Made by a program: the position numbers and the translations under genes
Notes under the pieces: model-generated
Told to the model about the DNA's origin: nothing
Database searches by the model: none
What the model saw: the letters and a program-made list of their open reading frames with translations, nothing else
Shown here: piece after piece, positions 8,614 to 33,900 of the stretch
How the letters are laid out: every line of letters starts with the position of its first letter
Position numbering within the stretch: the first letter of the stretch is position 1
NCBI GenBank assembly: GCA_013335095.1
Contig: JAAXWF010000002.1
Location: 80,516 to 144,515 of the forward strand
DNA length: 64,000 nt
Direction of reading: 5' to 3'
From: a candidate division WWE3 bacterium
GTDB lineage: Bacteria > Patescibacteriota > 4484-211 > GCA-002791395

Positions 8614-11600
8614 TTAAGGACTTCCGGTTACTGGTGCAATCCTCAAAGTACCGCCATCGTTCATTACTGTTTTTACTTGGGTAGCAGTAAGGCCATAATT
8701 ATACAGACGGACATCATCAAAGATAGAGTCTGCATACGTAGTACCTTCTCGCCCGATATATAAATTCAGGGGGTTTGCGCTTAAAGTTTCACCCATGGTG
8801 GTCTGATTATCTCTCGCACCATTAATATAAAATGCATAATTTGTTCCTTGATGTACAAATGTTATGTGAGTCCATACGTTTTGAGGGATTGTCGATGTCG
8901 AGGCAAAGTAACCGGTACTCTCGTTATAAAATTCGACACGGTTATCGTTTAAGATATACAAAGAGTAATCCCATAACGTAGTTCCATTAGTCTTTAACAC
9001 AAGTGGTTCATAGCCAGAACCTGAACGCTTAATCCAAAATGCAATACTGAGATCTTTTGTAATATCCAATTTCGGATTATAGGGAACTTCAATATATTGT
9101 GATGAGGCACTACTAAAGGATAACCCATTATTTAGTTTTCCGTCAACAATTGCTGGCGAATTATAAATTGTACCGGTGAGACCATTATTTGATGAATCAT
9201 AAGCGGTAGATCCAGAAGCTTCATCAAGCTTCCAATGGGCAAATGGAGCTCCACGATTATAATCCCATGCAACTTGAGCAGATGTTCTAGCATAATCGTA
9301 TATCCGTATATTATCTAGTTTTGAGTTGCTATATTGAGATTGGTCATCATATCCTCCGAATTGAAGGATGCGGGAGCCTGCCCCAGCCGTTGTGTACGGG
9401 ACATTTGACGTAGTACCAGAAGCGACAAGCAGACCATTCCGATAAATTGACATGGTATCAGTAGCATTATTAAATGTGCAAGTTACGTATTGCCATTCAT
9501 TTAATGTCATTGAACTATCTGCGGCCAGCTCATAATAACCACCTGAATTATTGTAAAAAAATCCACAATCAAGACCTGATGATGATTTAAGCTCAAAATA
9601 ATAATTAGCGGTTCCGCCATCTGCGTATTTATTAATGAATGAATCATTACCTGAGGATGGCAATCTTCGGGGGTATATCCATGAAGACAGTGTAAAACTC
9701 GTTAATCGTAAACTTGTAGAATCTGAAATAGTAACTTGGTCATTAGTTCCGTCAAAATCGAGCGATTTACCTAATTTACCAGTAACCCAATCCGCCGCAT
9801 CCATCGTAGAATCAATAGTTCCGTTAAAATCATTTCCAGACGTATCAACAACAGTCGTCGTCGGATCCATATCAAATTGCCATTCTCCAACAGGTGGGTT
9901 ACACGTACTGGTATCTCCTGGAACACAATATTCCCGAGACGAGCTTCTTGATGCTGTTGTGCCATCAGACTCAGTAGACAATGATCCCAATACAATTGCC
10001 TTACCTGTATTATATTCAGTCAGTACGTCGCTGTCCGATAAAGCCGCATTGTATATTTTTATTTCATCTAGTTTCCCAGGGTAATAATACTCATATGGGG
10101 TCCCATTATTTGATCGACCAATGTTTAGATTTGAGCTATTAGATATAGATAGGGTCGAAGATGTTAACGCATTAGCTAGTTTACCGTCTTCATATGTTTT
10201 CAATATCGAACCATTACGTTCAAATACAATATGATGCCAGCTTCCATCTGCAATATCTGATCGACCATATAGAAAGTATTCGGTACCGTTTACATAAACA
10301 GAACTGTACCAACGACTGTCATCCGTACTATCATGTAAACCAATTTCATATCCATACCTGGGTGCCGATGATACTTTGCTAATCATTATAAAGTAATTAT
10401 TGAAAACAGAAGCTTGAGTAGAATTTACCCACAAGCTGATTGAAAAATCAGCATTATCACCGAAATCAATACTATTATTATCCGTTACAGTTACGACATC
10501 AGAGCCATCAAAGGATACCGATTTACCTATTTTCCCATCGTTACTCCAAGCGGGTTTTTCTGAAGAGGTACCAAAATTAGCATCGAGCGAACTTCCTTGA
10601 ACTGTATTATTATGCGCAACAGATCCATATCCTTCATCCAGCTTCCAATAACCCACCGGTCCCGATACCGGAGTTCCAACTAGCGGGTGGTTCGCATTCA
10701 TATCTTGAATTATTTGGGATGGGGTACGGGCATAGTTGTATATTTTTAAATCATCCAGAGTACCATCTAGAGAACTGTTAGCACCAGCGCCACCCATTTG
10801 AACGGTGCCAGTCGAGTTCAATAGTGATCCAGTCGCATCACTAATAGCACCAGGGAGAAGATTTCCATTAAGATAAATTGACATATTAGTACCGCTCTTT
10901 ATCGCTGCGATGTGATACCACTGATTAGCGACAAGAGCAGATCCAGCGCCTGGAAAGACAAAGAACTCTGAACTTGAATTTGACCATGAAAAAACCGGTT
11001 GATTATCTGTTCCATTAATATAGAGTCGATATGACTGCCAAGGAGATGCACTATGTGACTTCCAGAACATTGTTGCCGCCTCTCCGGATTTATTAGTTGG
11101 CAAAACATCGAGCTTTATCCACCCCATTAACGAAATATCTGATGAAGGTTCCAATATACTATTATCTGTAGCTTCTATGTAGTCATTACTGCCATCGAAA
11201 TCAAGACCCTTACCATATTTCGCAGTTTTCCATAACGCTTGGGTGATCGTCGCACTAGTACTATTGCCACTGGTATCATTGGCTATAGCCCCTGATCCCT
11301 CGTCCATTTTCCAATATCCAACGGGTCCAGGTGCAAAGGCATTGAGCTTACTTACCTCACTCGCGGTTAAGGCACGATTATATACTCTAACTTCATCCAG
11401 ACTGCCATTAAAGTCCATAGCACTATCGCCATTACCATGATGACCAATCCATGTATTTGTTCCTAATCCTGAACACGAAATTGTTGTAGTAATTGATTCA
11501 TTAGCAACCTGCATGCCATCGATATAAAGACTGTGATAACTAGCGGATTTCACAACATACGCATAATGATGCCAACCAAAGCCAGCTACAAACAAACCTG

Positions 11601-17100: not shown

Positions 17101-19130
17101 CCACCACTATCAACAACCTCCAATGAATAACCGATATTGCCAGTCATTCCTTTTGAGAAGACAGGACAGTTTGAAAACTGACAGGTTCCAGCACGATATA
17201 TCCATCCACTAATCGTAAACGTAGAAATTTCATAACCACTCTGATCTCCCAGATCAATCACATCAGCGTTGGGTCCAGCGCCTCCATCAAAACTAGCAGC
17301 ACTTCCATACATACCAGTAGCCCACGTAGCGCCGTTTGCAAGTGTACCAGTAACACCGTTTCCACTTCGATCAGTCGTACTTGTTCCGGTATTTTCATCC
17401 ATTGGCCAATACCCAACAAGCCCATCAGATAAATTAACCTGGCTATTACTTCCAAGTGATACCGCGGCCATGTTGCCATCACGAGAGTTGTATAACGATT
17501 GGATTTGAGATTGACTCAGTTGCGTTGAATAGAGCTGGAATTCATCCATAAACATCTGGCCGTAATTGGTCGAGATTTGTCCGAGCTTTAATGCCGATGC
17601 CGAGATGCCTGTCCCGGTAGTCACCACTACAAACTGCCACCGATTGGCCGCAAGAGTAGAGGAGATCCGACCATTTACATAAATAGTCGGCGAGGTAAAT
17701 CCTGTAGCCGAGATTGTCCCAGAACTTGTTTGGATATATGCGGAACCATTTAGATCAATAAACTGCTCTGATGTGGTGAGCGGTTTGACCCAAAACGCGA
17801 CCGATTTGACACCACTGGTTACCCCTGCTGTAGTAATGACATCGTTACTCCCATCAAAATACAAACATTTATTCATCACACACAGATCTTCGGTGCGCCA
17901 GATTGCTCCACTAATCACGCCGCTATAGTTATTCGTACCAGCACTATTTAATGTCGTCCCATATCCTTCATCCATCCGATATAGAACGTCTGGGATTACC
18001 TGACTGCTTCCTTGAGCTGCACTTACACTCCTGAAGAAGGTAGAAGGACTGTTCTGATTAGCATACTCTGTGGCAATCCAATCGGCAGTTAGGACCGAAG
18101 TATTTAATCGGATTTCATCTAACTTCCCAGTAAAAAAGTTCGATGCAGAACCCCAGTTATACGCAGCAAGATATAACGTTCCAGTACTTCTACTAAAGGT
18201 TGTTTCCCAGGAAGAATCTGTTGAAGATAATGCGCCATCGATATAAACATAAATCACATTACTATTCCAGACGAATGTAGCCTCATGCCAAGTGTTGTTT
18301 GTAAAGGAATTATCACCACTCGAATAATCACCTGCCCCAGCATTATAAGCTTGCAATCCACCTGTTTGCCCTAGATATAATAGAGGATTATTACCCTCAA
18401 ACCCTAAAAAACCTGTATATGATTGCAGAGTCGACTCATTAAACCAAAATGACACGGACCCAGTCTCACCAAGAAACGTGGTGCTGGCTGGAAAATTAGA
18501 GATACTAACGGTATCATCAACTCCATCAAAATCAAGAGAATAGCCGATTTTTCCGGATACTCGATCAGCGGTATTCATTGAACCAGCGGCATCAGCATGA
18601 TAAGCATTGGACGTAGAATCACACACCTCTCGAGTTGTATTACAAGTGGTGGATGGATCTTCCTTCAGATGCCAGATGGCTTTATAGTTAGAATTCCATG
18701 TTGCAGTCACATTTTGCTGAGTTGATGCAGCAGAGTTTCCATAATACATAAAAATAGTCGTGTCATCGTTGTAATCGAGCGTAGGGATTCGAACCCATGC
18801 GATTAATTCTCCGGTCGAAGAATCATACTTTTCTATTTCATGGTCAAGTTTTGTCGAACCATCACTTGAAGTAAACAAAATATCATCGGCATCCGTTTGT
18901 GCATACGCTCGTAAGTCATCGTCAAGGCGCGAAACTAGCACCGGAAAATTTGTTAGATCCGAACTACCAGATACTTTGCTTTCATCAATAACTAACTTTT
19001 TTCGAAACGACCATGATGAGTTGTACCAAGCAGCGTCAGCATTTTTAGGATGTAAAAGGAAATATGAACCAAGAATAAAAAGGAAAACAGTTAAAAATGT
19101 TACGATAACTCTAGACAGTTTTTTATGCAT
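14103..19130 (-). CDS. giant surface protein paralog 2 (1675 aa): signal-anchor, DUF2341-like N-domain, LamG/ConA-like repeats
   Basis: TM (VIVTFLTVFLFILGSYFLL). 'AAWYNSSWSFRKKLVIDESKVSGSSDLTNFPVLV…MYYGN' is near-identical to paralogs 4 and 5. Shared motifs are 'GYWPMDENTG', 'GYWKLDEHTGSTAYD', 'REYCVPGDTGTCNP' and 'LYNYPRTATQIIQDMNANHPLVGTPV'. Confidence 0.8.
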   Translation of the reverse strand: MHKKLSRVIVTFLTVFLFILGSYFLLHPKNADAAWYNSSWSFRKKLVIDESKVSGSSDLTNFPVLVSRLDDDLRAYAQTDADDILFTSSDGSTKLDHEIEKYDSSTGELIAWVRIPTLDYNDDTTIFMYYGNSAASTQQNVTATWNSNYKAIWHLKEDPSTTCNTTREVCDSTSNAYHADAAGSMNTADRVSGKIGYSLDFDGVDDTVSISNFPASTTFLGETGSVSFWFNESTLQSYTGFLGFEGNNPLLYLGQTGGLQAYNAGAGDYSSGDNSFTNNTWHEATFVWNSNVIYVYIDGALSSTDSSWETTFSRSTGTLYLAAYNWGSASNFFTGKLDEIRLNTSVLTADWIATEYANQNSPSTFFRSVSAAQGSSQVIPDVLYRMDEGYGTTLNSAGTNNYSGVISGAIWRTEDLCVMNKCLYFDGSNDVITTAGVTSGVKSVAFWVKPLTTSEQFIDLNGSAYIQTSSGTISATGFTSPTIYVNGRISSTLAANRWQFVVVTTGTGISASALKLGQISTNYGQMFMDEFQLYSTQLSQSQIQSLYNSRDGNMAAVSLGSNSQVNLSDGLVGYWPMDENTGTSTTDRSGNGVTGTLANGATWATGMYGSAASFDGGAGPNADVIDLGDQSGYEISTFTISGWIYRAGTCQFSNCPVFSKGMTGNIGYSLEVVDSGGYKLRLSLRDGLQEVTGTTTINTNAWYHVTGTVDGQNVRVYVNGVLEAEAAQTQTPTFGGESAKIGNRNSGTDITLNGRLDDIRFYNRALTASEVRKLYAFAPGPIGYWKLDEHTGSTAYDVSTSGLPGTLYNQAKWSAGKFGGGTYFDGTGDYISAADNSIFDLTNQITIEAWARYTGSQYNNGGTVVSRGSGNSNVHHFYISKPNGFDIWDFSLTNSTGTEAYLTGPSMSYNQWYHLAGTWNGSTVKFYVNGVLVDTDTLSGSFANTANPFLIGSGESFTDPSVFSYEGSVDDVRLYNYPRTATQIIQDMNANHPLVGTPVSGSVGYWKFDEGYGTTAQDSTPNDNDLTLSAAAWTNSGKFNKAWDGNGARWLSRADDSDYDFVASDDFAISLWAKSDGSSNPATREIILNKVDTSTSNLGYAMSFENTGAVRFAINDDTDVSVESISTTADMYDGLWHYYTFVKQNTSSISLYVDGRLIAQDNSLSENGSLANDGALIVADNDAVNNLGEFTGDIDELKIYRAVMYLSDIQTEYNTGKAVVMGALSTESDGITASRSSSREYCVPGDTGTCNPVFQEWQFDENTGSTVSDSTGNSSLTINGNPVWSRGKLGSSLRFDGTGDYLSGTANTTNNSNVTVTAWVRQTGEDSNGVNIISYRGDSYGLFEDGGTTGMSGYFHYGAGQYDQIDSNIDLNDSTWHYVAYVIDDTNNIQSIYIDGDLMNSSATMDSISYINSSVSIGRYNSTTEFIGNIDRVQIFDFAMSSAQVAWNYDRGGAAGHWTFDETSGTTVYDSSGNNTHGNLVGSPTRTTSGKYNGALTFDGSTDQYAYLADYDAFGMPYGGSVTNESWSIAAWIKVNSSSGGPYPIISRTAGGQDVFNLVIDNAGKLILSVNDGTATVTGTTDLRSGGTRWYHVLGSWDNRANALSVYVDGNMESTTTYNSNFNYDFQPMIAGCMSTDCWYLFNGVIDDVRFYTYALNRTQIKTLMNNNSAIEFVQ

Positions 19131-19190
19131 AATTACCCTTTATCTATTATAGATTATTTTCTGGAAATGGATGCTAAATTACACCGGTAA

Positions 19191-22100
19191 CTATTGGGTA
19201 AATTTCACGGCAGAGTTCTGGTTCATGACCATCTTTATCTGCTCGGAGGTGAGCGCATAATTATAAATCTGAACATCGTCGATAGTACCATCAAAATATC
19301 CTGTTGCTGGTGTAAACATACCGATTGTGGCTGGTCCGGTATTTTCGCTAATTATTCCGGTAGCACTCTCGGTTGCATCCAGTTTACCGTCAATATAAAT
19401 CTTAACCGCAGATCCATCATAGGTCACTGTTATAAAATACCATGTATTATTGTTAAGCGAGGTTGTTGAATCAGTCATATCAGAAGTTAAATCTGAAGAA
19501 CGAAATCGCACCAATTTGTTATAAATAGCTACATAAAACCCTGCAGTATCTTTTGAATAAATAAATCGATAATCATTTACCGGAAGATTAGTTCCCTTAA
19601 CCCAAGCTGATATAGACATGCTCGTAAATGTTTGCAATAAAGCAGGGTTGCCCAAGGTAATATAATCATCAACACCATCAAATAATATTCCGCTATTAAA
19701 TTTACCCGATGTAGTCCGAGTAGGGGAGTTAGTCAATGTTCCGTTCAAACCATTTCCAGTAGAATCATATGCTGTAGAACCAGAAGTTTCATCAAACTCC
19801 CAATGAGCGAGTGGCGCTCCATGATTATAGTCCCAGGCAATCTGTTCAGGAGTTCTTACATATGAATACAGTGTGGTTTTATCAATAACTCCCTTAAAAT
19901 AATCGCCACCATAATATCCCGCATCAATCTGATCGCCAAAAAGGATATGATCTGTTGTACCACCCAGATCATATGTACCAGTAGCTGTACAATCAAGGAC
20001 TCCATTTAAGTACCCTGTATGCGCACGTCCGGTCGCGTTATATGTCATTGTTGCATAATACCAACGATTAGAGGTCAATGTGCTCCCATCACAGCCACGA
20101 GTACCGCCCTCATACGTTTGATAGCTAATACGATCACTATTTGTTACCAACATTGCATAATGAGTACTACCACTATTATTAGCCGGACCTTTTGTAACAA
20201 TCCACCGAGTAGTACCTTCATTACCGGTGATATAAAACCAAGTAGATAAGGTGTAACTAGCTGGATTTAGTAACGCGTTGTGGGTTACCTGCATTCGGTC
20301 ATCCGTACCATCGAATAGAACAGCGTTACCAATTTTACCAATACCCCATGATGGGCTGCCTAATAAGGACCCGTTAAATGCGTTTCCGCTCAAATCATTA
20401 ACAGTCGTACCGGATTTCTCATCAAAGTTCCACACTGCAACCGGAGGATTACACGTTGAGGCATCACCGGGAACACAATATTCACGTGCAGCTGAGTTAT
20501 CTGGTGTTTTGCCATCTGACGCGGTACTTGTTGCACCAAATGTTTGTACTTTTCCTGAATTATATTCGCTCAGGATATCGGTTTGAGTTAAATCAGTTAA
20601 ATAAATCTTAACCTCGTCAATTGATCCATTAAAATATTCACCTCCATCATATGAATTACGACCGATATCAAGGTTACTTCCGCCAATGTAATCAGACGAG
20701 GTCGTATCTGATGCAACTACTTTTCCATCCATGTATAGCACCCGCGCTTTAGTCGTCGCATTGTACGAACATGCAACATGATGCCAATTTGAATCTGTAT
20801 ATGTTGCAGTTGAATAAATGTCATTAGCGTAGAATCCGCAATGGAGCGTATTATTTGGATTGAATCGAAAATCGAGCATTCGATTAACTAATTGTTGTGT
20901 TCCAGAAGAAATTATCGTAGTTGCGATTCCGCTGGCCGCGCGTTTTACCCATGAACTTAACGTAAAAGATGAATTTGCTAATGCCAGCCCACTACTGACA
21001 TTTATATAATCATTCGATCCATCAAACTTTATGCCTTTGTAATACTTTCCATCATTCGTCCATCCCGAGGTTGAGGTAGCGGGGGATGCCATATTTGTTA
21101 ATGTACCATTTAGAGTAGAACCGCCAGTACCGATATTGTTAGCCGTAGTACCATACCCCTCATCAAAATTCATATGGAGTGCCGCGCTGCCGACTGGAGT
21201 ACCGACCAATGGATGCCCGGCGTTCATATCTTGAATGATTTGAGAAGGAGTACGAACGTAGTTATACAAGCGGACGTCGTCCATATTTCCACCCCAAGAA
21301 TGATTCCCGATCTCAAGAGTTTGTGAAGAATCATCTTCACGAGAACCCGAAGCATTGCCGCCTGTGAATGGTACTGATGTACCATTATAATAAATTTTTA
21401 TCCCTGCAGTAGTTGAACTTCCATCCCATGTAACGGCAACGTGATACCATTTACTAGGGTCATACGTACTATTGGCCGAACCATCATTACCTGCAGTTGA
21501 TGCATACAAATTAGAGGTAGAGTAACCGACTTCAAACTGGATATCATCGTCTTTATAGTTATTAACACCCCATCCGGATGATCCGTGACTAGCATTTTTA
21601 CCAATTGCTTCGTCGTCTGAACCATTTTTGTTTTGCGTCCAATATGAAATGGTTAGCGCAGATAAGTTATCAAAGGCGGCAGGAGAACCGGCACTAACGA
21701 CATCATTCACACCGTCGATAGTTAATGCCTTTCCATATTTCCCATTTGTCCATTGAGCGCTCCCGGTAATTGACCCATCGTACCCTCGACCACTAGAGTC
21801 GTTTGCGGTAGAACTACTCCCTTCATCAAACTTCCAATACCCAATGGGACCAGGAACCCAATTATATAGTCGGGATATTTCTGCTCCATCTAGGGCTCGA
21901 TTGTAAATCCGAAGGTCATCAATATATCCATTAAATCCACTGGTACCTGAACTAAGCGCCCCAATTGCAGTTGCACTAGAATTACCAACAGGAACGGAGG
22001 TATCGACGGCAGTTTCAACAAGAACTCCATTAATATATAAACTTGCAAGATTTTTACCTTCATCAAATGATGCAGCAAAATGATACCATTTGTTCTGTTC

Positions 22101-25100
22101 ACTTGAACCAATCCATGTATCTAGAGAGTTTGTAGACCAACCAATGGCATGCCCAAATGAGATCTGACCATAACCAATAGCCACATAGTAAGGTACATCG
22201 GCCTCTGCATATAAACTACCTTTTGCTATCAAAAATTGCCAATCATGACTCGTATTGGCATTTGTATCGTAAAACCACCCCGAAATAGTGTAATTATTCG
22301 TTAAGTTGAGTGATGCTGTATTGGGTATAGCAATATAGTCACTAGTACCATCAAATGCCGTACCTAATCCATATCGCCCATTAACAGATGTCGTATTGCC
22401 ATTCCACGCACCATCAACACCATTTCCCGATTTGTCACATGAATCATTAGTACCTCCAGTACAACTATTTGCTGCAGTTTCATCCATAGGCCAATACCCA
22501 ACGAGACCATCTGATAAAGAAATTGCCGCATCACTCCCCCCAAAGGATGCCGAGATTCCAACATCATTGTTTTTACTACGAAAATCACCTAAAACCAAGT
22601 TATTCAAACGAGCGTAGTTATAAAATTTAACCTCATCAATTGATCCAGTCCAATAATTTTCTACACTAGTTCCGTTATATCCAGCGCCAACATACAGCGT
22701 AGGGGATGAACCTGAAATTGACCCAGTCGCACTGATACCTCCCTGTTGATCGACAAGCATGCCGTCAACATACAAAGAGAGCGTTGAAGTTCCATTTTTC
22801 ACCATTTCAACAAAATGCCATTTTGAATCGGCATACGATGCAGTCGAGCAGGCATCATCTTCAGGAAACGAGGTTGCGTCGTCATCGATACCAAAACAAA
22901 TCGTACCACTGCTATTCATATATGCTTTGTATCCGCCACTCGCATATCGAGTAATGAGCGTATCTGTACCACTAACTACACTTGGATGTCTAAACCACAT
23001 TGAAACGGTAAAGCTTTCGGTGGATGGATTTAGTTCAGTATCGGAAGAATATGTCCTTGAAACAACATCATTTGTACCGTCAAACAGTAGACATTTATCA
23101 GAAGCGCATAAACTCTCATCTTGCCACACGGGACCGTTTAACACCGCTGAATTAAGGCTACTTGTCGCATCATTAATAGTAGTACCAGTACCTTCGTTAA
23201 GAGGATAATACAAAGTGGCGGTACCATCAGTAATACAACTTGATACAAACTTCCAATTAGTGTTACTTACCGACGTAGAAGAATATGCAGTGACCTTACC
23301 ATTCTGATCTCTTACCGATACATCGAATATTTCAAAGGAACCATTACCTGACCACGTCCGAGCAGAACCATTTGTAGTGGAAGTAATTGCAATAGCATCA
23401 GATCCACCACATCCCGACATTGTTCCAAATAACATCGCGCCACTATTTGTGACACCACTAGATCCAACAGTCATATCCCCAGTTGAACTATTCTTCCATA
23501 CCCCCGTAGTTGTAATCGTGTATGAGCCAGAATTTATTGAAGAATCGAATTGATTGAACTGACCAGAAACAGTTGTAACATCATCAACGGTCAATGTATA
23601 TGCGCCAGATAAGTTAAATACAGAGTCGACAGATACAATAAAGTCCTGGCCCGTTCCATCCAAAGAAAGATTTGAGCTAAGAATAAATTTACCATCTGAC
23701 TTATTTACCGTAAAAGTGCCGTCAGGTAACTCGCCACCACTCGATGAAAACGTTTGATCTTTATTTCCTAATATCTTTATTGGAACGTTTCCACTAGTAC
23801 CATTGTTTGCAATCGTAATATTACCCGAGACTGCGAGTATTCCTGGTCCATCTACGTATCCAGATCCACACCCACCGCTGTCAAAAGTCAAAGTACCGTC
23901 TATCGTTAAGGTTGTGCCTGAAGCGACCGCCAAATTATCGTTGCATGATAATACCGTAAAGTTATAAAAACTTTGACTTCCGGTTATTACACCAGTCCAA
24001 TCGTACGATGAGGTAAACAGCACCGTACTGGTACCAAAGTTTAGAGTACCACCTGTATACGTGTAATCGTTTGTAAAACGTATTGTTCCGCTAAATATAA
24101 GTACTCCGCTCGATTTGTTTACTACAATCGAAGGAAACGCAGCTGTACTGCTATCACCGGAAATAGTCTGATTACCTACACCATTTATAGTTATAACTCC
24201 ATCTCCTGTAATACCGTTACTTGTTGAGGTAATATCTCCATTTGCAATTATCGAACCGGGTCCCTCTAATACTCCACTTCCACACCCATGACTGTCCAAG
24301 GTTAATGTACCATCTACTGTAATTGTTGTACCTGATGCAATTGATAGATTATCTTGGCACGAATATATCGTAAAGTTATAAAAACTTTGACTTCCGGTTA
24401 TTACACCAGTCCAATCGTACGATGAGGAAAAAAGTACTGTACTAGTACCTACACTTAAAGTACCTGCTGTATACGTGTAATCGTTCGGAAAACGCATCGT
24501 TCCACTATATGTAAGAATTCCACTAGGCTTATTTACTACAATTGAAGGTAAGGATGCGGAACTGCCATCTCCTGAAATAGTCTGATTCCCGGTACCACTT
24601 ATAGTTATAACTCCATCTCCTGTAATACCGTTACTTGTTGAGGTAATATCTCCATTTGCAATTATCGAACCGGGTCCCTCTAATACTCCGCTTCCACACC
24701 CATGACTGTCCAAGGTTAATGTACCATCTACTGTAATTGTTGTACCTGATGCTATCGATAAATTATCGGCACAGGAATAAATCGAAAAGTTATTAAAATT
24801 TCGAGATCCACTTACAACGCTGTAATAATCATCTGATGCGGTTATACGAACAGTTCCTGAATTTGTATTAAAGGTACCACCTGATATCGTCCAGTTATCA
24901 TATTCTGATAGGATCCCGCCAGTAGAGGTAAACGTTCCTCCCGATAGTAAAAAGTCGCCGCCATATTGAATAGTTATGTCTCCAGAACTCGCTCCAGTAA
25001 ATGTACCGCCGCGCTGTTCGAATCCCAGTGAGCCGATATAAAAAGACACACCCGAACCTTGAGTAACCGTCCCTGAGTAGTTTGTTTCAATTAATATGCC

Positions 25101-25421
25101 ACCACCAGTATCATCTGGATCATTGAATCCTGAGTTTATCGTTACATTTTTATTTGGAGTACCAGTAGTACACGTCGGACCTCCAAAGATAGCCCGATCG
25201 GTGTTGGCAGGTACAGTATTTCCAGCCCAATTTGCTCCTTCGGTCCAATTATTCGTACTACCCTCACCATCCCAACATTTATCAGCCGCCATCGAGACAT
25301 TGGGCGAAGACAACGAAATAATCCATAAAACAAATATAGTAATGACAATACGTACCCCTTGGAGTGAAAATAAATTTTGAGCAGTCATAAATAAACTATT
25401 TCTCATTCGACGAAATATCAA
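19191..25421 (-). CDS. giant surface protein paralog 3 (2076 aa): signal-anchor, Gly/Thr-rich beta-helix-like N-region containing ~140-aa tandem repeats, then LamG/ConA-like repeats
   Basis: TM (VITIFVLWIISLSS). The N-region 'CWDGEGSTNNWTEGANWAGNTVPANTDRAIFGG…' and the repeats '…SGTTITVDGTLTLDSHGCGSGVLEGPGSIIANGDITSTSNGITGDGVITISGTGNQTISGD…' have no DUF2341 N-domain. The C-terminal 1200 aa carry the same LamG linker motifs as the other paralogs (GYWPMDETAANSCTGGTNDSCDKSGNG, YNYVRTPSQIIQDMNAGHPLVGTPV, REYCVPGDASTCNP). An alternative start lies a few codons inside. Confidence 0.8.
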   Translation of the reverse strand: MIFRRMRNSLFMTAQNLFSLQGVRIVITIFVLWIISLSSPNVSMAADKCWDGEGSTNNWTEGANWAGNTVPANTDRAIFGGPTCTTGTPNKNVTINSGFNDPDDTGGGILIETNYSGTVTQGSGVSFYIGSLGFEQRGGTFTGASSGDITIQYGGDFLLSGGTFTSTGGILSEYDNWTISGGTFNTNSGTVRITASDDYYSVVSGSRNFNNFSIYSCADNLSIASGTTITVDGTLTLDSHGCGSGVLEGPGSIIANGDITSTSNGITGDGVITISGTGNQTISGDGSSASLPSIVVNKPSGILTYSGTMRFPNDYTYTAGTLSVGTSTVLFSSSYDWTGVITGSQSFYNFTIYSCQDNLSIASGTTITVDGTLTLDSHGCGSGVLEGPGSIIANGDITSTSNGITGDGVITINGVGNQTISGDSSTAAFPSIVVNKSSGVLIFSGTIRFTNDYTYTGGTLNFGTSTVLFTSSYDWTGVITGSQSFYNFTVLSCNDNLAVASGTTLTIDGTLTFDSGGCGSGYVDGPGILAVSGNITIANNGTSGNVPIKILGNKDQTFSSSGGELPDGTFTVNKSDGKFILSSNLSLDGTGQDFIVSVDSVFNLSGAYTLTVDDVTTVSGQFNQFDSSINSGSYTITTTGVWKNSSTGDMTVGSSGVTNSGAMLFGTMSGCGGSDAIAITSTTNGSARTWSGNGSFEIFDVSVRDQNGKVTAYSSTSVSNTNWKFVSSCITDGTATLYYPLNEGTGTTINDATSSLNSAVLNGPVWQDESLCASDKCLLFDGTNDVVSRTYSSDTELNPSTESFTVSMWFRHPSVVSGTDTLITRYASGGYKAYMNSSGTICFGIDDDATSFPEDDACSTASYADSKWHFVEMVKNGTSTLSLYVDGMLVDQQGGISATGSISGSSPTLYVGAGYNGTSVENYWTGSIDEVKFYNYARLNNLVLGDFRSKNNDVGISASFGGSDAAISLSDGLVGYWPMDETAANSCTGGTNDSCDKSGNGVDGAWNGNTTSVNGRYGLGTAFDGTSDYIAIPNTASLNLTNNYTISGWFYDTNANTSHDWQFLIAKGSLYAEADVPYYVAIGYGQISFGHAIGWSTNSLDTWIGSSEQNKWYHFAASFDEGKNLASLYINGVLVETAVDTSVPVGNSSATAIGALSSGTSGFNGYIDDLRIYNRALDGAEISRLYNWVPGPIGYWKFDEGSSSTANDSSGRGYDGSITGSAQWTNGKYGKALTIDGVNDVVSAGSPAAFDNLSALTISYWTQNKNGSDDEAIGKNASHGSSGWGVNNYKDDDIQFEVGYSTSNLYASTAGNDGSANSTYDPSKWYHVAVTWDGSSTTAGIKIYYNGTSVPFTGGNASGSREDDSSQTLEIGNHSWGGNMDDVRLYNYVRTPSQIIQDMNAGHPLVGTPVGSAALHMNFDEGYGTTANNIGTGGSTLNGTLTNMASPATSTSGWTNDGKYYKGIKFDGSNDYINVSSGLALANSSFTLSSWVKRAASGIATTIISSGTQQLVNRMLDFRFNPNNTLHCGFYANDIYSTATYTDSNWHHVACSYNATTKARVLYMDGKVVASDTTSSDYIGGSNLDIGRNSYDGGEYFNGSIDEVKIYLTDLTQTDILSEYNSGKVQTFGATSTASDGKTPDNSAAREYCVPGDASTCNPPVAVWNFDEKSGTTVNDLSGNAFNGSLLGSPSWGIGKIGNAVLFDGTDDRMQVTHNALLNPASYTLSTWFYITGNEGTTRWIVTKGPANNSGSTHYAMLVTNSDRISYQTYEGGTRGCDGSTLTSNRWYYATMTYNATGRAHTGYLNGVLDCTATGTYDLGGTTDHILFGDQIDAGYYGGDYFKGVIDKTTLYSYVRTPEQIAWDYNHGAPLAHWEFDETSGSTAYDSTGNGLNGTLTNSPTRTTSGKFNSGILFDGVDDYITLGNPALLQTFTSMSISAWVKGTNLPVNDYRFIYSKDTAGFYVAIYNKLVRFRSSDLTSDMTDSTTSLNNNTWYFITVTYDGSAVKIYIDGKLDATESATGIISENTGPATIGMFTPATGYFDGTIDDVQIYNYALTSEQIKMVMNQNSAVKFTQ
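23935..24790. repeat. direct tandem repeat, unit ~420 bp, ~2 near-identical units plus a diverged third copy upstream (to ~23770), inside paralog 3 coding sequence
   Basis: The + strand runs 24188-24360 and 24608-24780 are nearly identical base for base (…ccgttacttgttgaggtaatatctccatttgcaattatcgaaccgggtccctctaatactcc…). Likewise 23940-24130 matches 24360-24550 (…cgtaaagttataaaaactttgacttccggttattacaccagtccaatcgtacgatgagg…). Confidence 0.8.
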
Positions 25422-25830
25422 TAATAGTATCGTTTACCGGATCATATACAATACTCATTGTTTCAAAAAGTAACACAACATTACCTTCACTTACTTTAGT
25501 GATTTTTTTTAAACGTTTAAGTGATTCTACGTCTTTTACCACACCAACAGTTGCCGATGAGTTTTGTGGTATCTGAATTGTTTTTTCAATTTCATGTACA
25601 TATTCATTCTTTTCAACTTGATCAGCTTGTAGTGTATTAATATTTTTTAAGTATCGATCTACGCGGCGATCCAAGTAGACGATAAGAAAGCACAGTAAAG
25701 GAAGCATGACCATAGAGGTAACAAAAAACATACGGTACTTCCTTAGCAATGGATAATCTAAAACGATTGTGTGAGTCTTTTTCTGTAGCAAATTTAGACG
25801 ATCCTTTATTCTATTTATTAATTGATTCAT
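25396..25830 (-). CDS. small single-pass membrane protein (144 aa), hypothetical, embedded between giant paralogs 3 and 4
   Basis: One TM helix (MFFVTSMVMLPLLCFLIVYL) and no recognisable domain. The stop overlaps the annotated start of paralog 3 by ~25 nt on the same strand. Confidence 0.45.
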   Translation of the reverse strand: MNQLINRIKDRLNLLQKKTHTIVLDYPLLRKYRMFFVTSMVMLPLLCFLIVYLDRRVDRYLKNINTLQADQVEKNEYVHEIEKTIQIPQNSSATVGVVKDVESLKRLKKITKVSEGNVVLLFETMSIVYDPVNDTIIDISSNEK

Positions 25831-25860
25831 ACAGGTTCATTATAGTCAAACGACGCTCCG

Positions 25861-28800
25861 CTAGAAACGCACCGATGCATTGTCATTTAGGGCCGTCTGT
25901 ACTTGCAGTTGTGAAAGGGGATAATTATAAATCCTAACATCATCGATAGTTCCGGTAAACGTGCGATCAGTGGCGGATCGACTTCCAATTATTACATCGC
26001 GCGAAGAGTCATCACTGGCCGATGTTGCCGGAGTATTATTTTCAGTCGTCGAAACAAGCTTGCCGTTGATATAAAAGATTGGATCGTTTGAAGCACTGGA
26101 TCGATTATAGACAACCGCGACATGAGTCCATTGAGATAAAGAGATCGAATTTGTCGGAGTAGACCACCATCCCCAATTCGCACCGCCAAAATTTATGAAA
26201 AATCCTAAGCTATTGTTGTTGCACAGAATACCGCCATCACTACACACAAATAGTCCCCATCCGCTCGACGAAACAGGATCAGTTCCTTTATCTACGATCC
26301 GTCCAAATCCGCCTTCACCATAACTAGTTGGATTAATCCAAGCCGCGACAGTCACCATATTCAAATTATCTAATGCAGTTGGAGACCCTGCATTTATGTT
26401 ATCGTCAATTCCATCAAAAGTTACGGCACTTGAGATATGCCCCAAAGTCGTTCGTGTTGGTGTATTCGTAAATGTACCGTTAAATGCATTTCCCGAAGCA
26501 TCATATGCAGTACTGCCGGATGTTTCATCAAGTTTCCAATGAGCTACAGGAAGACCTCGATTATAATCCCATGCAACTTGAGCGGGCGTGCGCGCATAGT
26601 CATATAACAGGACGTTGTCTAAAGATCCCGATAAGGGGAAAATCCCTCCGGAACCGTGATTAAACAATGAATTAACGACTAATGAGGTAGTACCATTACT
26701 TAGTGTTTGGGTAGATCCTTGCATCACACCATTTACGTAAAAGGTAACCGAACTGGACTGGCGAGCAATTTCTAAGTGATACCATCGATTTGCAGTAAAA
26801 CCTGAATGTGAAACCGCAACAGCTTCTCCCAAAGCCGGACTATAATAAATATTCCCCGAACTTCCAATACTATCGATATAAACGCCATATATACCTGGTG
26901 AGTTTCCCACAAGAACGGCGTCATTATTCGAAGATTCTTGATGCTTAAACCATAGACTTATGGTATTGCTAGTACCTAAATTCAAATTGCTAAATGTAGC
27001 AACATCGGCGGAATCATTGCCTGCCATTGTATACGTTTTTCCGATCTTTCCCGGCTCCCATTGTCCAACTGTTGAGCTATCAACGAGAGTTGCATCACGA
27101 TTGTTGCCGGAACGATCTTTAATGCTGCTACCGGTACCATCATCAAAACTCCATACTGCAACCGGAGGATTACAGGAAGCCGCATCACCTGGAACGCAAT
27201 ATTGGCGGTCAGATGAATTAGATGTCGTCGTTCCATTACTGGCGGTAGACAGAGATCCTAAAGTTAATGAACTTGACTGATTTCTAAGGTTTTTTACTTG
27301 ATCTGATGATAGGGGTGAATTGAAAATATGTACGTCATCAATCGTACCGTCAAACTCATTATCAGCGCCATCGCTACGACGGCCAATATCAACCGTCGAA
27401 CTACCATTTGACATACTATATGCAGGAGTGGTATCGGTATATCGGAGTTCACCATCGAGATAAATGTCCAATCGGACATCACTAATAATTACGCACGTTA
27501 AATTATGCCAAGATCCAGTAGTGACATTTACCCCTGTAATATAGCCCTCACCACCACCGGCTCCAAGATGATTATTACCACCTGCCGTCCACGCTTCACA
27601 GTACGCATTACTGGTGCCGTAAAAACCTAAGCCCCATTCATAATTATCAGTAGTCCCTTTAGTTACCAAGTATGTTCTCGAACCGCTTGCAATCGAGTCG
27701 GCATTAAACCACGCTGAGACGGTTAGTCCTTCATTCCATGATGGGGAAAAAATATCTCGATCGGGGATGGAAATATAATCATCGACGCCATCAAACTTCA
27801 ATGCTTTATCAAATTTGCCTGAATTAGTCCAACCAGAAGAAGCACTGGCAGGAGATGAGAATCCATTTAGCGATCCATTAATTGATGATCCATCAGAACC
27901 GCTATTATTGGCAGTTGTACTATTTCCTTCATCGAATTTCCAATAACCGGCAGATACGGGAACAACAGGATCATTCGTCGATGCACCGTGCATATCTGCC
28001 AAGATTTGATCATACGTTTGAGCATAATTATAAATACGGACATCATCAATAATGCCTGGAATAACCATAGTAGGAGACCAAGGTTCAGCGCCAAACCATA
28101 AATTTGAAGCACCAACGTAGGAGATAGCACCTGTATAGTTGTTAGTACCTGATAATATTCCGTCTACATAAATATTAACTGTAGATCCATCATAAGTTCC
28201 CGTAAGGAAATACCAAGTATCTGGTAACAACGTTGCACTAACGGCGGTAGTTGATCCAGAACCATAAAGTACACGAAACCGGGCAAAAGTACTTGTACCA
28301 CTTCCATCAGTATTCAGATGCAAAGAATAACCTGCCTGATTATTCCAATCTTGATCAGAAATAATTCCAGCTTCTTTCCAAGCAGTATGCATTGATGAAT
28401 CAAATTTGATCCATGCCGAAACGGTTAATCGCTGAGGACGAAGCAAGGCATTGTTATTTACAACAATACGATCATCTGAACCCGAGAATTGAACTCCCTT
28501 ACTAACCTTCGATGATACCCATGGATCTGCAGGAAGATTCGTTAAGGTCCCATCATTCGCATTGCCTGACAAATCTTGAGCGACAGTTCCACTACCATCA
28601 TTTAAGTTCCAATATCCGATTGGTCCAGGGGCAAAATGATATAAAGCCATTACATCATTTGAAGTCAAAGCTCTATTATAAATGCGTAGTTCATCAAAAT
28701 TAGCTGATGTCGGAGTACCTATTAGACTATCTCGGCCAATGAATAATAGATTGCTCGAATAATTTCTAGATTCTGATGCAGTATGTTCTGCTATACCATC

Positions 28801-30930
28801 TATGTAAATCGTTTGGGTGTTATTATTAACGACATAAGTCACTGCATGCCAATTATTGTCATTAATATCACTTACCGATGTAGCGGATCCGTTTGAAGAT
28901 CCATCAATCGAGCAATTAATTTTATTTAAAGAGACACCATCTATCCGACAATACAACTGATCAAAGCTTATGGGAATACCTGAAGTTGCCGCTGTCTTAA
29001 TCCAAAAGTGAATAGTCAAAAAGTTAGATGTTAAATCAAATTGATTCGAAGAAACTAGGTAATTCGAATCATTTCCATCTGTACTTATAGCATTTCCATA
29101 ATTACCAGGACTATAAGAAGCCGAGCCTTGTAAACCGCCATCGATCCCATTTCCTGATTTATCACACGTATCATTAATCCCACCGGTACAGCTATTAGCT
29201 GCAGTTTCATCCATCGGCCAATATCCTACAAGCCCATCAGAAAGTGATTTGTTCGATCTTGATCCCATCGTCACTCCGCTTAAATTAGTACCGCCGGAAT
29301 CATACAATGCAACTATTTGAGCAGGTGAGAGAACGGCAGAATATAATTGGACCTCATCAAAGAAGCCTTGCCCGTAATTTGAGCTTATTTGTGCTATTTT
29401 TAACGCTGTTGCGTTTATCCCTGTAGCTGTAGTAACAACAACATGATTCCAACGATTCGTTTGAATTGTCGATGAGATTTTTCCATTCACATAAATGGTT
29501 GGAGAAATAAAACCAGTTGCAGACAGGGTCCCTGAAGATGATTGAATGTAGGCTGAACCATTCAAATCAATAAACTGTTCGGATGCAGTCATTGGACGAA
29601 CCCAAAAGGCCGCAGTTTTAACACCAGATGTTGTTTGTGCCGACGTAACGACATCATTACTACCATCAAAATATAAACATTTTCCCGAAACACACAGATC
29701 TTCTGATTGCCATGTGGCACCATTAATTGAACCCACCACATTATTTGAACCAGAGTTATTCACCGTAGTCCCAAATCCTTCATCAAATGACAGTCGAACT
29801 TCTGGATCAGTTGGGGATTGTGGAACCGAAACCGTTTTAATAAATGACGATGGGTCGTTTTGATTGGCGTATTCAGTCGCAACCCAATCCGATGACAGTT
29901 GATTATTAGAAACCCGTACTTCATCTAACTGACCATCAAAGTTCCAACCACTATAAAACATAATTGCTCCAATCCGAGCCGCACCTGAACCGATGTAATC
30001 GGACGGCGCAGTATCAGATGCAACCGAAACACCGTCTCGATAAATATTTCTTGCATTTGTTGCTGCGTTGTAGGTGCAATTCCAATAATGCCAATTTGTA
30101 TCTGTATACGTTGGGGTATCTAAATCGTTCGAGTAAAAAGCAAATGTAAATGTATTTGAGTTTCGAAATCCTATGTGAAGAGAGCCGTTTGTGACAATAC
30201 TGGCAACTTGACCAACAACAAAATCATAGTCATTAATAATGTCTCTTTTTGCCCAAAAGCTAATTGAGAATGAATTACTCGCAACATTGATTGCTGAAGA
30301 ATCGTTTATTTCGTCATCACTGCCGTCTAGATTTAGACCGTTACCAACTCTCGCTGAAACAAGTTGCGATGACAACATAGATCCTGAAGTCGTACCATCA
30401 TTATTTTGTGATGTAGAATCCTGCATTTGGGGTGCCGTTCCACCTGGATCTTCCTTTAAATGCCAAACGCTTAAGTACGAATTATTCCATGTTGCAGATA
30501 TGCTCTGCTGATTTGTAGCATTTGCATTACCATAATACATATAGATAGTAGTGTCATCGTTATAATCTAGGGTCGGTACCTCAACCCAGGCAATAAGTTC
30601 ACCGGTTGATGCATTGTATGATTCAATCTCATGGTCTAGTTTTGTAGAACCATCGCTTGAAGTAAAGACGATATCATCGCCATCTGATTGAGCTGAAGAT
30701 TTGAGATCACCATCAGTTCTATTTATTAAAACGGGAAAATTTATTAAGTCAGCAGATCCAGAAACCTTACTTTCGTCAATAACTAACATTTTTCGATATG
30801 ACCATGAGGAGTTATACCATGCAGCCTGTGCTGATTTAGGCGTAAAAAGAAAATATACTCCTGTTGCAATAAAAAGGATCAGAGAAAAAATAAAAAATAT
30901 TTTTGAAAACTTTTGTTTCATATTAGACAA
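25861..30930 (-). CDS. giant surface protein paralog 4 (1689 aa): signal-anchor, DUF2341-like N-domain, LamG/ConA-like repeats
   Basis: TM (IFFIFSLILFIATGVYFLF). The N-domain 'AAWYNSSWSYRKMLVIDESKVSGSADLINFPVLINR…IYMYYGN' is ~90% identical to paralog 5 over the first ~130 aa. Motifs are 'GYWPMDETAANSCTGGINDTCDKSGNG', 'GYWNLNDGSGT' and 'RQYCVPGDAASCNP'. Confidence 0.8.
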   Translation of the reverse strand: MSNMKQKFSKIFFIFSLILFIATGVYFLFTPKSAQAAWYNSSWSYRKMLVIDESKVSGSADLINFPVLINRTDGDLKSSAQSDGDDIVFTSSDGSTKLDHEIESYNASTGELIAWVEVPTLDYNDDTTIYMYYGNANATNQQSISATWNNSYLSVWHLKEDPGGTAPQMQDSTSQNNDGTTSGSMLSSQLVSARVGNGLNLDGSDDEINDSSAINVASNSFSISFWAKRDIINDYDFVVGQVASIVTNGSLHIGFRNSNTFTFAFYSNDLDTPTYTDTNWHYWNCTYNAATNARNIYRDGVSVASDTAPSDYIGSGAARIGAIMFYSGWNFDGQLDEVRVSNNQLSSDWVATEYANQNDPSSFIKTVSVPQSPTDPEVRLSFDEGFGTTVNNSGSNNVVGSINGATWQSEDLCVSGKCLYFDGSNDVVTSAQTTSGVKTAAFWVRPMTASEQFIDLNGSAYIQSSSGTLSATGFISPTIYVNGKISSTIQTNRWNHVVVTTATGINATALKIAQISSNYGQGFFDEVQLYSAVLSPAQIVALYDSGGTNLSGVTMGSRSNKSLSDGLVGYWPMDETAANSCTGGINDTCDKSGNGIDGGLQGSASYSPGNYGNAISTDGNDSNYLVSSNQFDLTSNFLTIHFWIKTAATSGIPISFDQLYCRIDGVSLNKINCSIDGSSNGSATSVSDINDNNWHAVTYVVNNNTQTIYIDGIAEHTASESRNYSSNLLFIGRDSLIGTPTSANFDELRIYNRALTSNDVMALYHFAPGPIGYWNLNDGSGTVAQDLSGNANDGTLTNLPADPWVSSKVSKGVQFSGSDDRIVVNNNALLRPQRLTVSAWIKFDSSMHTAWKEAGIISDQDWNNQAGYSLHLNTDGSGTSTFARFRVLYGSGSTTAVSATLLPDTWYFLTGTYDGSTVNIYVDGILSGTNNYTGAISYVGASNLWFGAEPWSPTMVIPGIIDDVRIYNYAQTYDQILADMHGASTNDPVVPVSAGYWKFDEGNSTTANNSGSDGSSINGSLNGFSSPASASSGWTNSGKFDKALKFDGVDDYISIPDRDIFSPSWNEGLTVSAWFNADSIASGSRTYLVTKGTTDNYEWGLGFYGTSNAYCEAWTAGGNNHLGAGGGEGYITGVNVTTGSWHNLTCVIISDVRLDIYLDGELRYTDTTPAYSMSNGSSTVDIGRRSDGADNEFDGTIDDVHIFNSPLSSDQVKNLRNQSSSLTLGSLSTASNGTTTSNSSDRQYCVPGDAASCNPPVAVWSFDDGTGSSIKDRSGNNRDATLVDSSTVGQWEPGKIGKTYTMAGNDSADVATFSNLNLGTSNTISLWFKHQESSNNDAVLVGNSPGIYGVYIDSIGSSGNIYYSPALGEAVAVSHSGFTANRWYHLEIARQSSSVTFYVNGVMQGSTQTLSNGTTSLVVNSLFNHGSGGIFPLSGSLDNVLLYDYARTPAQVAWDYNRGLPVAHWKLDETSGSTAYDASGNAFNGTFTNTPTRTTLGHISSAVTFDGIDDNINAGSPTALDNLNMVTVAAWINPTSYGEGGFGRIVDKGTDPVSSSGWGLFVCSDGGILCNNNSLGFFINFGGANWGWWSTPTNSISLSQWTHVAVVYNRSSASNDPIFYINGKLVSTTENNTPATSASDDSSRDVIIGSRSATDRTFTGTIDDVRIYNYPLSQLQVQTALNDNASVRF

Positions 30931-30937
30931 ATGAAAG

Positions 30938-33900
30938 TTACTTAAACTTTACCGCTGAACCTTCATTCATAACCAGTTTAACCTGTTCGGCAGTCAATGC
31001 ATAGTTATACATACGAACATCATCGATTGAACCTTCGGATAATGCTTTATATGTTGCATCGGTTGGCACGAATGCTCCTATATTCATGTTTGATGATGTA
31101 TCTTCCATACCGTTATATGTGCCTTGGGATGATGTACTAAGAACCTGATCCTTACCATTTACATATAAAGCTATTCCCCCCCCATTGTTACTACCATCAT
31201 AAGTTGCAGCGAGATGCGTCCATTGATTTTGATAGTTTGATAAATTACTCGTGGTATATGCAAAGATTTGATTGGCACCGGATGTATCGAATAATGCCAA
31301 CTCCAGCTCCCCAGAAATACCTGGTGATGATGGGGCCGTGTCAAAAGACCACTCCAAATTGCTGGTAGCATTATCTCCTTTACTTGCAATCACAAAATCA
31401 GAGGTATCTCCCATATAAACCCATGCTGTTATAGAAAAAGGTCGATCATCTGACCCATCTCCAAACGACAAAAGATTACGATCACCGATAAGTACATAAT
31501 CGTTAATCCCATCAAATGAGATGGCACTGTTGTACCTACCCGATGTTAATCGTGTCGGCGAATTAGTCAGTGTGCCATTTGAACTGTTGCCCGAAGCATC
31601 ATATGCCGTAGTTCCAGACGCCTCATTAAATTTCCAATAACCAACAGGATCACCTTGGTTATAATCCCAAGCGATTTGAGCTGGAGTACGGACATAGTCG
31701 TACACTCTTACCGAATCAATTAAACCATCAAAATGACGAGTAGCCTCGTTCGGACTATTTCCAATATCCCACGTGTCCGTCGAATTTGATAAACCTCCGC
31801 TCCCATGAACAAAGTTGAAGCCGACAGGCCGACCATTTACATAAAACATTCCCGAACTGGTGCCATTGTTATAAACCATCGTTACGTATTGCCATTGGTT
31901 AAGAACCACTGAGTTAGCATCTGAATTGAAAGAATGCGCTGGTCCTAAATTAACTCTTAAGCTGTCGTTATAATAGGTTCCGTCATCAAGAATAAAACTT
32001 GGTCCGACACCCCAACCGGGAGAAATAATGAATCCAAACCCACCGCCACCAAATGTGCGTGGATAAATCCAGGCACTCATCGTTATTTGGCCTGATCCAC
32101 TCGCAATATTTCGCAATGAAGTGGTCATATTGGTAATATCAACATGATCTGCGGCCGACTCTCCAGTAAAGTTGCCCGCTTTACCAACCTTGCCTGGTAA
32201 AAATCGAGGTGAACCACTACCGGTCCAGGTACCGTTGCTCCCTCCTCCAGTAATGTCGTTAACAACAGATCCCGTACCTTCATCAAAACGCCATTCGGCT
32301 ATCGGAGGGCTACATGTTGTAGTATCTCCAGGGACACAATACTCCCGCGAAGAGCTGTTTGATGCCGTTGTTCCTGTTGATGTAGTAGAGCTTGACCCCA
32401 TCGAAATTGCTGATCCACCTCGAAATTCTTCCATAATTTGATCTACGGTTAATAGCGAACGATATACCTTTATTTCATCAACATCACCAAAAAATTCGTT
32501 ACCATCATCAACTCCAGTGCGATCACCAATCACCAGTGACGTTGAGTTTGCTAACGTACCCGTTGCAGAAATCGAAGTATCTTCACTAATAAGTCGTCCA
32601 TCAATAAAGATCTGAATTTTAGACGTACCATTTTTCATTGCGACGACATGATGCCAGTTTCCGTCATAGATATCGCGTCCGACATCACCAGCGCTATCAT
32701 CGGGTGACCAGGTCGCATCATCATCAATGCCAAACACTAAATCGCCATCAGTTTGAAAATATAATGCATATCCTTGAGTTGTTCCGTTTGATTTACTCAG
32801 CAAATATTCTGTCGAGGCGGGGTTTGTTGCGCTATCTGATTTAAACCATGCACTAATCGCAAGATCTTCTGCAGCCGAAAAGTCAAAATCATTATCATCG
32901 GCACGAGATACCCAATTAGCGCCAGTTCCATTCCATGATTTACCCAGTTTCCCATCCATTGCCCACGATACGTTAGAGAGTGTTAAATCGTTATCAAGAG
33001 AACTCGAGTCATTTGAGGTTGTGCCATACCCTTCGTTAAATTTCCAATACCCAGCAGTTCCGGCTCCACTTCCTGTAATCGGATGTCCAGCATTCATGTC
33101 TTCAATTATTTGCCGAGCTGTTCGTGCATAGTTATAGATTTTGACGTCATCAACGATTCCATCAAGATCACGGCTACCATCGGCACGTTCACCAATACGT
33201 ACTTGTGCAGTACCGTTTGTATACGATCCAGATGGGGTGGTACCAGTTGCAATGTTTACGCCGTTTACGTACAACCGAAGCTCCGGAATAGATAAATTAG
33301 CAGTCATAGCGATATGGTTCCATGCCCCGACTGTAAATGTATTCGATGTGCCCAGAGCTGTTAAGTAATCTGCACCCGATGACGTTGTAAGGTATGCCCT
33401 TACTGAGTTATTACTGTTATCAACACGGATAAACCATTCATAATTACTGCCAGCCCCTTTGCTGATCGGTTCAATCAGCGAGGTTAATGAATCAACATAT
33501 ACCCATCCCATTACGCTAAGTTGGTTTGTAGTATTCACCGAAAAGGCATCATTATCAGCAATGCTCACGCTATCGTTTACCGCATCAAAGTCTAAGGCAG
33601 CTCCATATTTGCCCGTGACCCAATCGTCCGATGAAAGACTATTCATCGTACCGGTAAATCCGTTTCCCGAAGAGTCATACACACTTGTCGTACCGGTTTT
33701 TTCATCAAGTTTATAATAGGCGATGGGGTCAGGGGCCCAATTATAAAGCTGTTTGGCTTCAGCAGAAGACAGGTAGCGATTATATATCCGTAGTTCATCC
33801 AGATCCATATCGTAATTACCCCAGGCACCATCATTTCGACCACTGACTGATAATGAAGCCGTATTAGCTATTGCGGCAGCTAATCCATCACCAGAATCCC

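Follow-up and report, generated by a model that had tools for sequence, protein, structure and literature searches.

The window analysed here comprises 64,000 nucleotides (nt) of contig JAAXWF010000002.1 from a candidate division WWE3 bacterium of the Candidate Phyla Radiation (CPR; Patescibacteria). A gene on its minus strand encodes the hypothetical protein NTV30967.1, a singleton 90% cluster, and the N-terminal part of this protein contains tandem units of 138 amino acids (aa), two of which show high identity in a patchy fashion, with near-identical tracts flanking a diverged segment. The findings as a whole are probably best explained by an in-frame beta-helix repeat that descends from an old duplication, has been patchily converted in recent times and would be prone to recombination, an explanation that we hold with fair rather than full confidence. 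The repeat-bearing gene and the parts of its product, in window coordinates, are as follows.

19191–25388, minus strand: repeat-bearing coding sequence ("paralog 3" of the first-pass annotation), NTV30967.1, HGA91_03260, hypothetical protein, 2065 aa
25287–25388, minus strand: N-terminal hydrophobic segment, signal-peptide-like or membrane-anchor, MTAQNLFSLQGVRIVITIFVLWIISLSSPNVSMA, then ADKCW, read from the translation
24792–25286, minus strand: predicted beta-helix N-terminal cap and partial unit tail; aa 175–210 resemble the last 35 aa of the unit
24378–24791, minus strand: unit U1, aa 211–348, 138 aa, 414 nt
23964–24377, minus strand: unit U2, aa 349–486, 138 aa, 414 nt
23550–23963, minus strand: unit U3, an old diverged copy, aa 487–624
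19194–23201 (upper boundary approximate), minus strand: C-terminal array of at least six Laminin_G_3 (LamG; concanavalin-A-like lectin) domains, PF13385

Tandem Repeats Finder detected a single array within 20–30 kb of the window, located at 23951–24798, with a period of 414 nt, 2.0 copies, 87% matches, 0 indels and a score of 1319. Scanning offsets from 405 to 425 gave 80% identity at 414 and 22–31% at all others, including the background value of 31% at 420. The true period is thus 414 nt (138 codons) and not the 420 bp proposed in the first-pass annotation, which had paired its coordinates with the second member of each pair 6 nt out of register. At the true offset, the first of these pairs (24188–24360 versus 24602–24774) is 94.8% identical and the second (23940–24130 versus 24354–24544) only 82.7%. 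A strong tandem repeat does lie at the place indicated, and the unit peptide quoted for it agrees with the translation; the perfect, almost base-for-base identity ascribed to it does not extend throughout, as U1 and U2 differ at 52 of 414 nt. Their overall identity (87.4% in DNA, 87% in protein) nevertheless stays above the 80% below which the units were to be regarded as substantially diverged. The third, diverged unit is also present, with 50% protein identity to U2 over its first 101 aa (E 6e-27) and a diverged tail, but in this minus-strand gene it lies downstream of the others, not upstream. Self-BLASTN of the 64-kb window returned the U1/U2 repeat as the strongest internal repeat, at 588 bits versus at most 233 for any pair of paralogous genes.

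The differences between U1 and U2 are strongly clustered. Specifically, two near-identical tracts, A and B, flank a diverged segment D.

24599–24752, minus strand: tract A, U1 copy; pairs with 24185–24338, 1 mismatch in 154 nt
24185–24338, minus strand: tract A, U2 copy; exact runs of 91 and 62 nt against the U1 copy
24369–24427, minus strand: tract B, U1/U2 junction copy; 59-nt perfect match to 23955–24013
23955–24013, minus strand: tract B, U2/U3 junction copy; 59-nt perfect match to 24369–24427
24428–24598, minus strand: diverged segment D of U1 (D1), 171 nt, about 76% identical to D2
24014–24184, minus strand: diverged segment D of U2 (D2), 171 nt, pairs with D1

This clustering is not due to chance: in 20,000 shuffles that kept codon position, the longest stretch with no more than one mismatch was 106 nt, short of the 154 nt observed. 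Nei–Gojobori counts of synonymous (pS) and nonsynonymous (pN) differences between U1 and U2 show the same mosaic segment by segment.

Tract A: pS 0.025, pN 0.009
Tract B: pS 0, pN 0.025
Segment D: pS 0.56 (dS about 1.0), pN 0.12
First 13 codons of the unit: pS 0.81, pN 0.113

The synonymous changes of tract A and segment D differ with p = 7e-8 in Fisher's test, and a dN/dS of about 0.13 in segment D indicates purifying selection on an old duplicate and not diversification. U3 is separated from both U1 and U2 by a pS of 0.61–0.85.

The duplication that gave rise to U1 and U2 is best read as old, since the diverged parts approach saturation at synonymous sites, and the tracts of 154 nt and 59 nt were probably homogenised recently by non-reciprocal intragenic recombination, that is, gene conversion. 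In the simplest reading of the sequence, the mosaic is direct evidence of recombination between units, as the first-pass annotation had anticipated: two tracts with almost no synonymous divergence adjoin one with a pS of 0.56. It is not evidence of a change in unit number. RecA-type unequal recombination could plausibly act on the exact tracts that remain (91, 62 and 59 nt) and would add or remove whole units in frame; with the standard rise of 4.8 Å per rung, one unit gained or lost would change the rod by roughly 2.5–3 nm. Two other proposals of the first-pass annotation fare less well. On/off phase variation is excluded, since 414 = 3 × 138 and gain or loss of a unit stays in frame, and slipped-strand mispairing is unnatural for a 414-nt unit with only two copies, for which homologous recombination fits instead. 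Recombinational length variation of the NTV30967.1 gene is plausible by analogy with its relatives, and the gene may vary in length within its population.

To model the fold, AlphaFold2 was run on an alignment of 61 homologues and the query region (62 sequences). The resulting model (predicted local distance difference test score, pLDDT, 91.0; predicted template modelling score, pTM, 0.86) consists almost entirely of short regular strands and is confident over the N-terminal cap region as well, bearing out the beta-helix that had been read from the repeat. The N-terminal region is confidently predicted to be a right-handed parallel beta-helix with stacked three-strand rungs, forming an elongated rod. 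DSSP assigns about 16 strands to each 138-aa unit, which would correspond to five to six rungs of one continuous helix. As modelled, the beta-helix is about 640 aa long and is made up of the cap, a partial unit, U1, U2 and U3. The top Foldseek matches of the N-terminal model were also beta-helix proteins, none of them significant. In the cap region the family consensus reads W..WN..ANWS...VPG..D.A.FDG, and the partial tail before U1 shows 40% identity to the unit over 35 aa in BLASTP (E 3e-5). Each unit also contains two cysteines, at positions 7 and 32 (YSC and HGCGSG), which are 25 residues or about one rung apart and are kept in U1, U2 and U3; they are missing from the family consensus. Cys7 and Cys32 might form a rung-to-rung disulfide.

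The beta-helix region is not covered by existing family models. The N-terminal 669 aa gave no Pfam match at E<=10 except one at chance level, and neither NCBIfam nor a profile search of PDB sequences matched the first 700 residues. PF13385 matches the C-terminal two-thirds of the protein and not the repeat itself (E 2.6e-128, 424 bits versus a cut-off of 27.6, six stretches). A search of Rfam over 23000–25900 returned nothing meaningful, and an RNA element behind the nucleotide conservation was rejected, as no Rfam family explains it. The N-terminal hydrophobic segment is followed by an SMA/AD site in the translation, and from sequence it is a putative signal peptide, if cleaved, or a signal anchor, if retained. 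No anchor motif was found at the C-terminus, for which no predictor was run. NTV30967.1 would be located at the cell surface, where its beta-helix may act as a stalk or spacer or as an adhesive rod. The open reading frame (ORF) list gives 19191–25421 for the gene, and the ATG at 25388 yields the exact NTV30967.1 product.

The unit belongs to a much larger family. A word-indexed protein search listed 165 homologues with at most 44% identity, from type IX secretion system (T9SS) proteins of Bacteroidota, from Oligoflexia, Uhrbacteria and Omnitrophota and from others; it listed no protein above about 1,100 aa, nor the 2065-aa query itself, so long relatives may be missed. The alignment profile, which also includes C-terminal parts of the homologues, at E<=1e-3 matched 30,399 cluster representatives (4,606 at 1e-30), among them proteins of up to 6,738 aa. 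With a hidden Markov model of the unit, we counted 2–6 units in the 103 first-round homologues that had at least two detected units, up to 12 in long representatives and 17 in one protein (P0125). Elsewhere the module is put to extracellular use, as many of the homologues carry T9SS sorting domains and one (P0144) has a C-terminal transmembrane anchor. The beta-helix unit thus represents a large and widespread family without a Pfam model. The highest identity between units of the same protein has a median of 49% and reaches 98, 97, 96 and 86% in some proteins; the occurrence of near-identical units in several proteins means that recent unit duplication or conversion recurs in the family. One high-GC locus, L001, carries a 387-nt array of 12.5 copies with 78% matches (L001 1918–6873). 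This array extends past the called 1031-aa gene on both sides, and the 90% cluster of that gene has members of 318 to 2815 aa, a pattern that points to a much longer repeat gene that has been frameshifted, fragmented or mis-assembled.

One 90% cluster provides a pair of alleles that differ in unit number. P0017 and P0143 have four units each and P0144 has six; the proteins are more than 90% identical and their alignment contains one clean in-frame gap of 258 aa (2 × 129). The corresponding genes share their neighbours, a CoA-transferase gene and a luciferase-like gene. At the DNA level, identity between the four- and six-unit alleles is 98.1% downstream and about 85% upstream of the gap, and in the six-unit allele the endpoints of the gap lie within a tract of about 270 nt whose identity at offset 774 is 84–100% and which includes exact runs of 73, 53 and 35 nt. 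The pair bears the footprint of unequal homologous recombination between units and shows that the mechanism proposed in the first-pass annotation operates in the family.

Several points weigh against the recombination-prone rod that we favour for NTV30967.1. Besides the N-terminal segment no anchor is visible, and the stalk role is thus not established; the beta-helix could instead be the distal, functional end of the protein. The predicted number of rungs per unit rests on DSSP strand counts and not on coordinates. The recombination rate may be low, because only two copies have high identity and their longest exact tract is 91 nt. The four- and six-unit alleles come from short-read metagenome contigs of another phylum, and their upstream halves are only about 85% identical, which speaks for evolutionary turnover and not for rapid switching. 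Additionally, no close relative of NTV30967.1 was found in GTDB genomes, JGI metagenomes or protein sets: protein-pattern scans of the GTDB genomes and JGI metagenomes yielded no close relative, a degenerate DNA pattern for GTLTLDSHGCGSG had no match in either, and the best relatives among 299 fetched proteins reach about 40% identity.

One alternative is that the repeat is a static structural element, with tracts left by one or two rare past conversions, a unit number fixed in the population and no role in variation, the unit reflecting no more than the way in which the helix grew. In its favour, there are only two similar copies, at 87% overall identity; the median of about 49% for the maximum identity within a protein makes stable, diverged arrays the norm, and no variant of the NTV30967.1 gene appeared in the collections scanned. 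The conversion must have been recent, however, with one change in 154 nt beside saturated synonymous sites, so that units recombine on short time scales, and the family shows both repeated recent unit duplications and a four- versus six-unit polymorphism bearing recombination signatures. We therefore consider a static repeat unlikely, though it has the best standing of the alternatives. Targeted hypervariation, in which segment D would be a variable region of the diversity-generating retroelement (DGR) type, or another diversifying region, inside recent duplicates that are identical elsewhere, is barely credible. The mosaic of identical and diverged blocks superficially resembles a template/variable repeat pair, and CPR genomes often carry DGRs. 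Yet the mismatched positions show no adenine bias (T16/A13/C12/G11 in U1, A18/T13/G11/C10 in U2), the changes in D are mostly synonymous, the opposite of diversifying selection, and no reverse transcriptase was found among the ORFs scanned with Pfam, a subset of those in the window. The even base spectrum at mismatches and the low dN/dS led us to reject a DGR variable/template repeat pair. It is also very improbable that the beta-helix is an enzyme, such as a pectate-lyase-type polysaccharide lyase, a glycosidase or an epimerase, and not a rod. Adhesins and passenger domains are its best matches, hits to CAZy-type Pfam families are absent even at E<=10, and interchangeable units of variable number fit a fixed active-site cleft poorly. 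The 62-sequence alignment contains no invariant column and 14 nearly invariant ones (ten Gly, two Phe, one Gln and one Ile), none of which is an acidic or basic residue of the catalytic type; a structural or adhesive rod is therefore favoured.

An assembly artefact, in which the assembler of the metagenome-assembled genome made the two copies or the identity of the tracts by false duplication, collapse of a longer array or homogenising bubble-popping, is in our view quite unlikely, more so than a static repeat. The sequence is a metagenome-assembled contig of 358,632 bp, and tandem repeats are known to cause errors in assembly (PMC6868369). Logan offers an independent k=31 assembly of the underlying sequencing run, SRR11449211. 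One Logan contig corresponds to window 24723–35986 at 100% identity and a second to window 18981–23984; the start of the latter was predicted from the repeat map and then confirmed by exact look-up of the predicted partial protein. The end at 24723 falls exactly 30 nt (k-1) within the exact sequence of tract A, and the end at 23984 equally far within that of tract B. The independent assembly thus cannot cross the region, in keeping with the earlier expectation that the repeat would be hard to assemble, and since it breaks k-1 inside the tracts, the branching comes from the reads themselves and the tract boundaries are genuine. Copy number is not readable from these breakpoints, and numbers above two that re-use D1 or D2 remain compatible with the Logan data. 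The other contig ends (about 19010, 18981 and 35986) fall in N-terminal regions common to paralogues 2 and 5. Against an artefact stand four observations. False duplication is unlikely because it would give identical copies, yet the copies differ at 52 sites, in frame and with a purifying pattern (pN 0.12, pS 0.56 in D). Homologues normally hold 2–6 such units. The longest exact run is 91 nt, and the flanks of each tract can be linked by longer k-mers or reads; typical final k-mers or reads are longer than 91 nt. Lastly, shared 31-mers have to occur in the reads, as De Bruijn assembly cannot invent them.

The gene for NTV30967.1 is the third of five large tandem genes that occupy window 8614–36130 on the minus strand and encode proteins of 1675–2076 aa, each with about six Laminin_G_3 domains. 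The paralogues share 66–80% DNA identity without near-identical tracts. The four neighbours resemble NTV30967.1 in these domains, in their strand and in a similar N-terminal hydrophobic segment; they begin with DUF2341, and only the third begins with the beta-helix module. In the first paralogue (8614–14085, minus strand), aa 358–474, between the DUF2341 and LamG parts, weakly match Pretoxin-HINT (PF07591, E 0.0035, below the cut-off) and may be a degenerate Hint or intein-like insertion, judging by this match. A 144-aa ORF at 25396–25830 (minus strand), between paralogues 4 and 3, has no Pfam match; its stop precedes the ATG at 25388 by about 7 nt, and Logan calls a shorter start of 111 aa. 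The LamG gene cluster is adjoined by a glycoside hydrolase family 5 (GH5) cellulase with a C-terminal type I dockerin domain (5649–8579, plus strand). At 36261–38480 (plus strand), a 739-aa protein matches choline/carnitine O-acyltransferase (PF00755, E 1.3e-68), which is unexpected in a WWE3 genome because this family is mostly eukaryotic; the region has an unusually high AT skew of 0.27.

The biology of the CPR cell surface is almost unknown, and a literature search for WWE3 with LamG, or for CPR with laminin G, found nothing relevant. If the length of the rod varies in the population, NTV30967.1 would be a simple example of surface-protein length tuning in a CPR bacterium. At a practical level, short-read assemblies break in the repeat region or may get its copy number wrong, and the beta-helix unit family, large and uncurated in Pfam, could be given a model. 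No general principle is changed by these results, as in-frame repeats of high identity in surface proteins and their gain or loss by recombination are already well documented.

Among known systems, intragenic tandem repeats of bacterial genes whose copy number differs between strains, a topic reviewed in PMC3899988, offer a first comparison. Those of Legionella pneumophila (PMC2639597) are likewise in-frame coding repeats that serve as a source of length polymorphism, whereas no polymorphism is documented for NTV30967.1. A phase-variable contingency locus is marked by a shift in frame or promoter spacing; the unit described here has 138 codons and 0 indels, lies inside the coding sequence and leaves the frame intact when its number changes, so the gene is not a locus of this type.

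The predicted beta-helix fold is shared with adhesins of type V secretion, namely the autotransporter passengers pertactin, Hap, TibA and Ag43 and the TpsA proteins EtpA, FHA and HMW1. In contrast to these, the N-terminal region of NTV30967.1 shows no sequence relationship to them in Pfam or in the PDB profile search, and Pfam detects neither an autotransporter barrel nor a two-partner secretion (TPS) domain in the protein, only LamG-type families. NTV30967.1 bears a LamG array in place of a translocator. CPR bacteria are not known to have an outer membrane.

The closest parallel is provided by the Periscope Proteins, surface proteins with stalks of long tandem repeats of high DNA identity, in which intragenic recombination alters the number of repeats (Whelan et al. 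2021, PMC8201768); examples include SasG, Rib/alpha C, Sgo_0707 and CdrA (PMC8201768). NTV30967.1 departs from them in several respects. Only two of its copies have high identity, which is patchy, and U3 is 50% identical. Its unit would be a multi-rung slice of a continuous beta-solenoid and not a bead-like, independently folded globular domain on a linker. The orientation is inverted, with the rod N-terminal and the LamG domains C-terminal, and no wall anchor was identified in the protein. No length variant was observed for this singleton cluster, variation being seen in distant members only, and the host is an uncultivated CPR bacterium and not a pathogen. On the other side, U1 and U2, at 138 aa and 87% identity, fall within the range used to screen for Periscope Proteins (repeat length above 50 aa, identity of 80% or more), and NTV30967.1 has a rod as far as prediction goes. 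Its repeats lie within a large, predicted extracellular protein, with the rod beside putative binding domains; the proposed mechanism is likewise intragenic recombination that changes repeat number, and relatives of the unit differ in repeat number between proteins that are more than 90% identical. From this likeness a broader proposal can be drawn, which we put forward tentatively and think doubtful as it stands: the multi-rung beta-helix unit of about 130–140 aa would be a cross-phylum recombination cassette with which uncultivated bacteria, including CPR episymbionts, tune the length of solenoid rods, here changing the reach of a six-domain LamG array. If true, the Periscope principle would have a solenoid counterpart, in a family that lacks a Pfam model although its profile matches about 30,000 cluster representatives.

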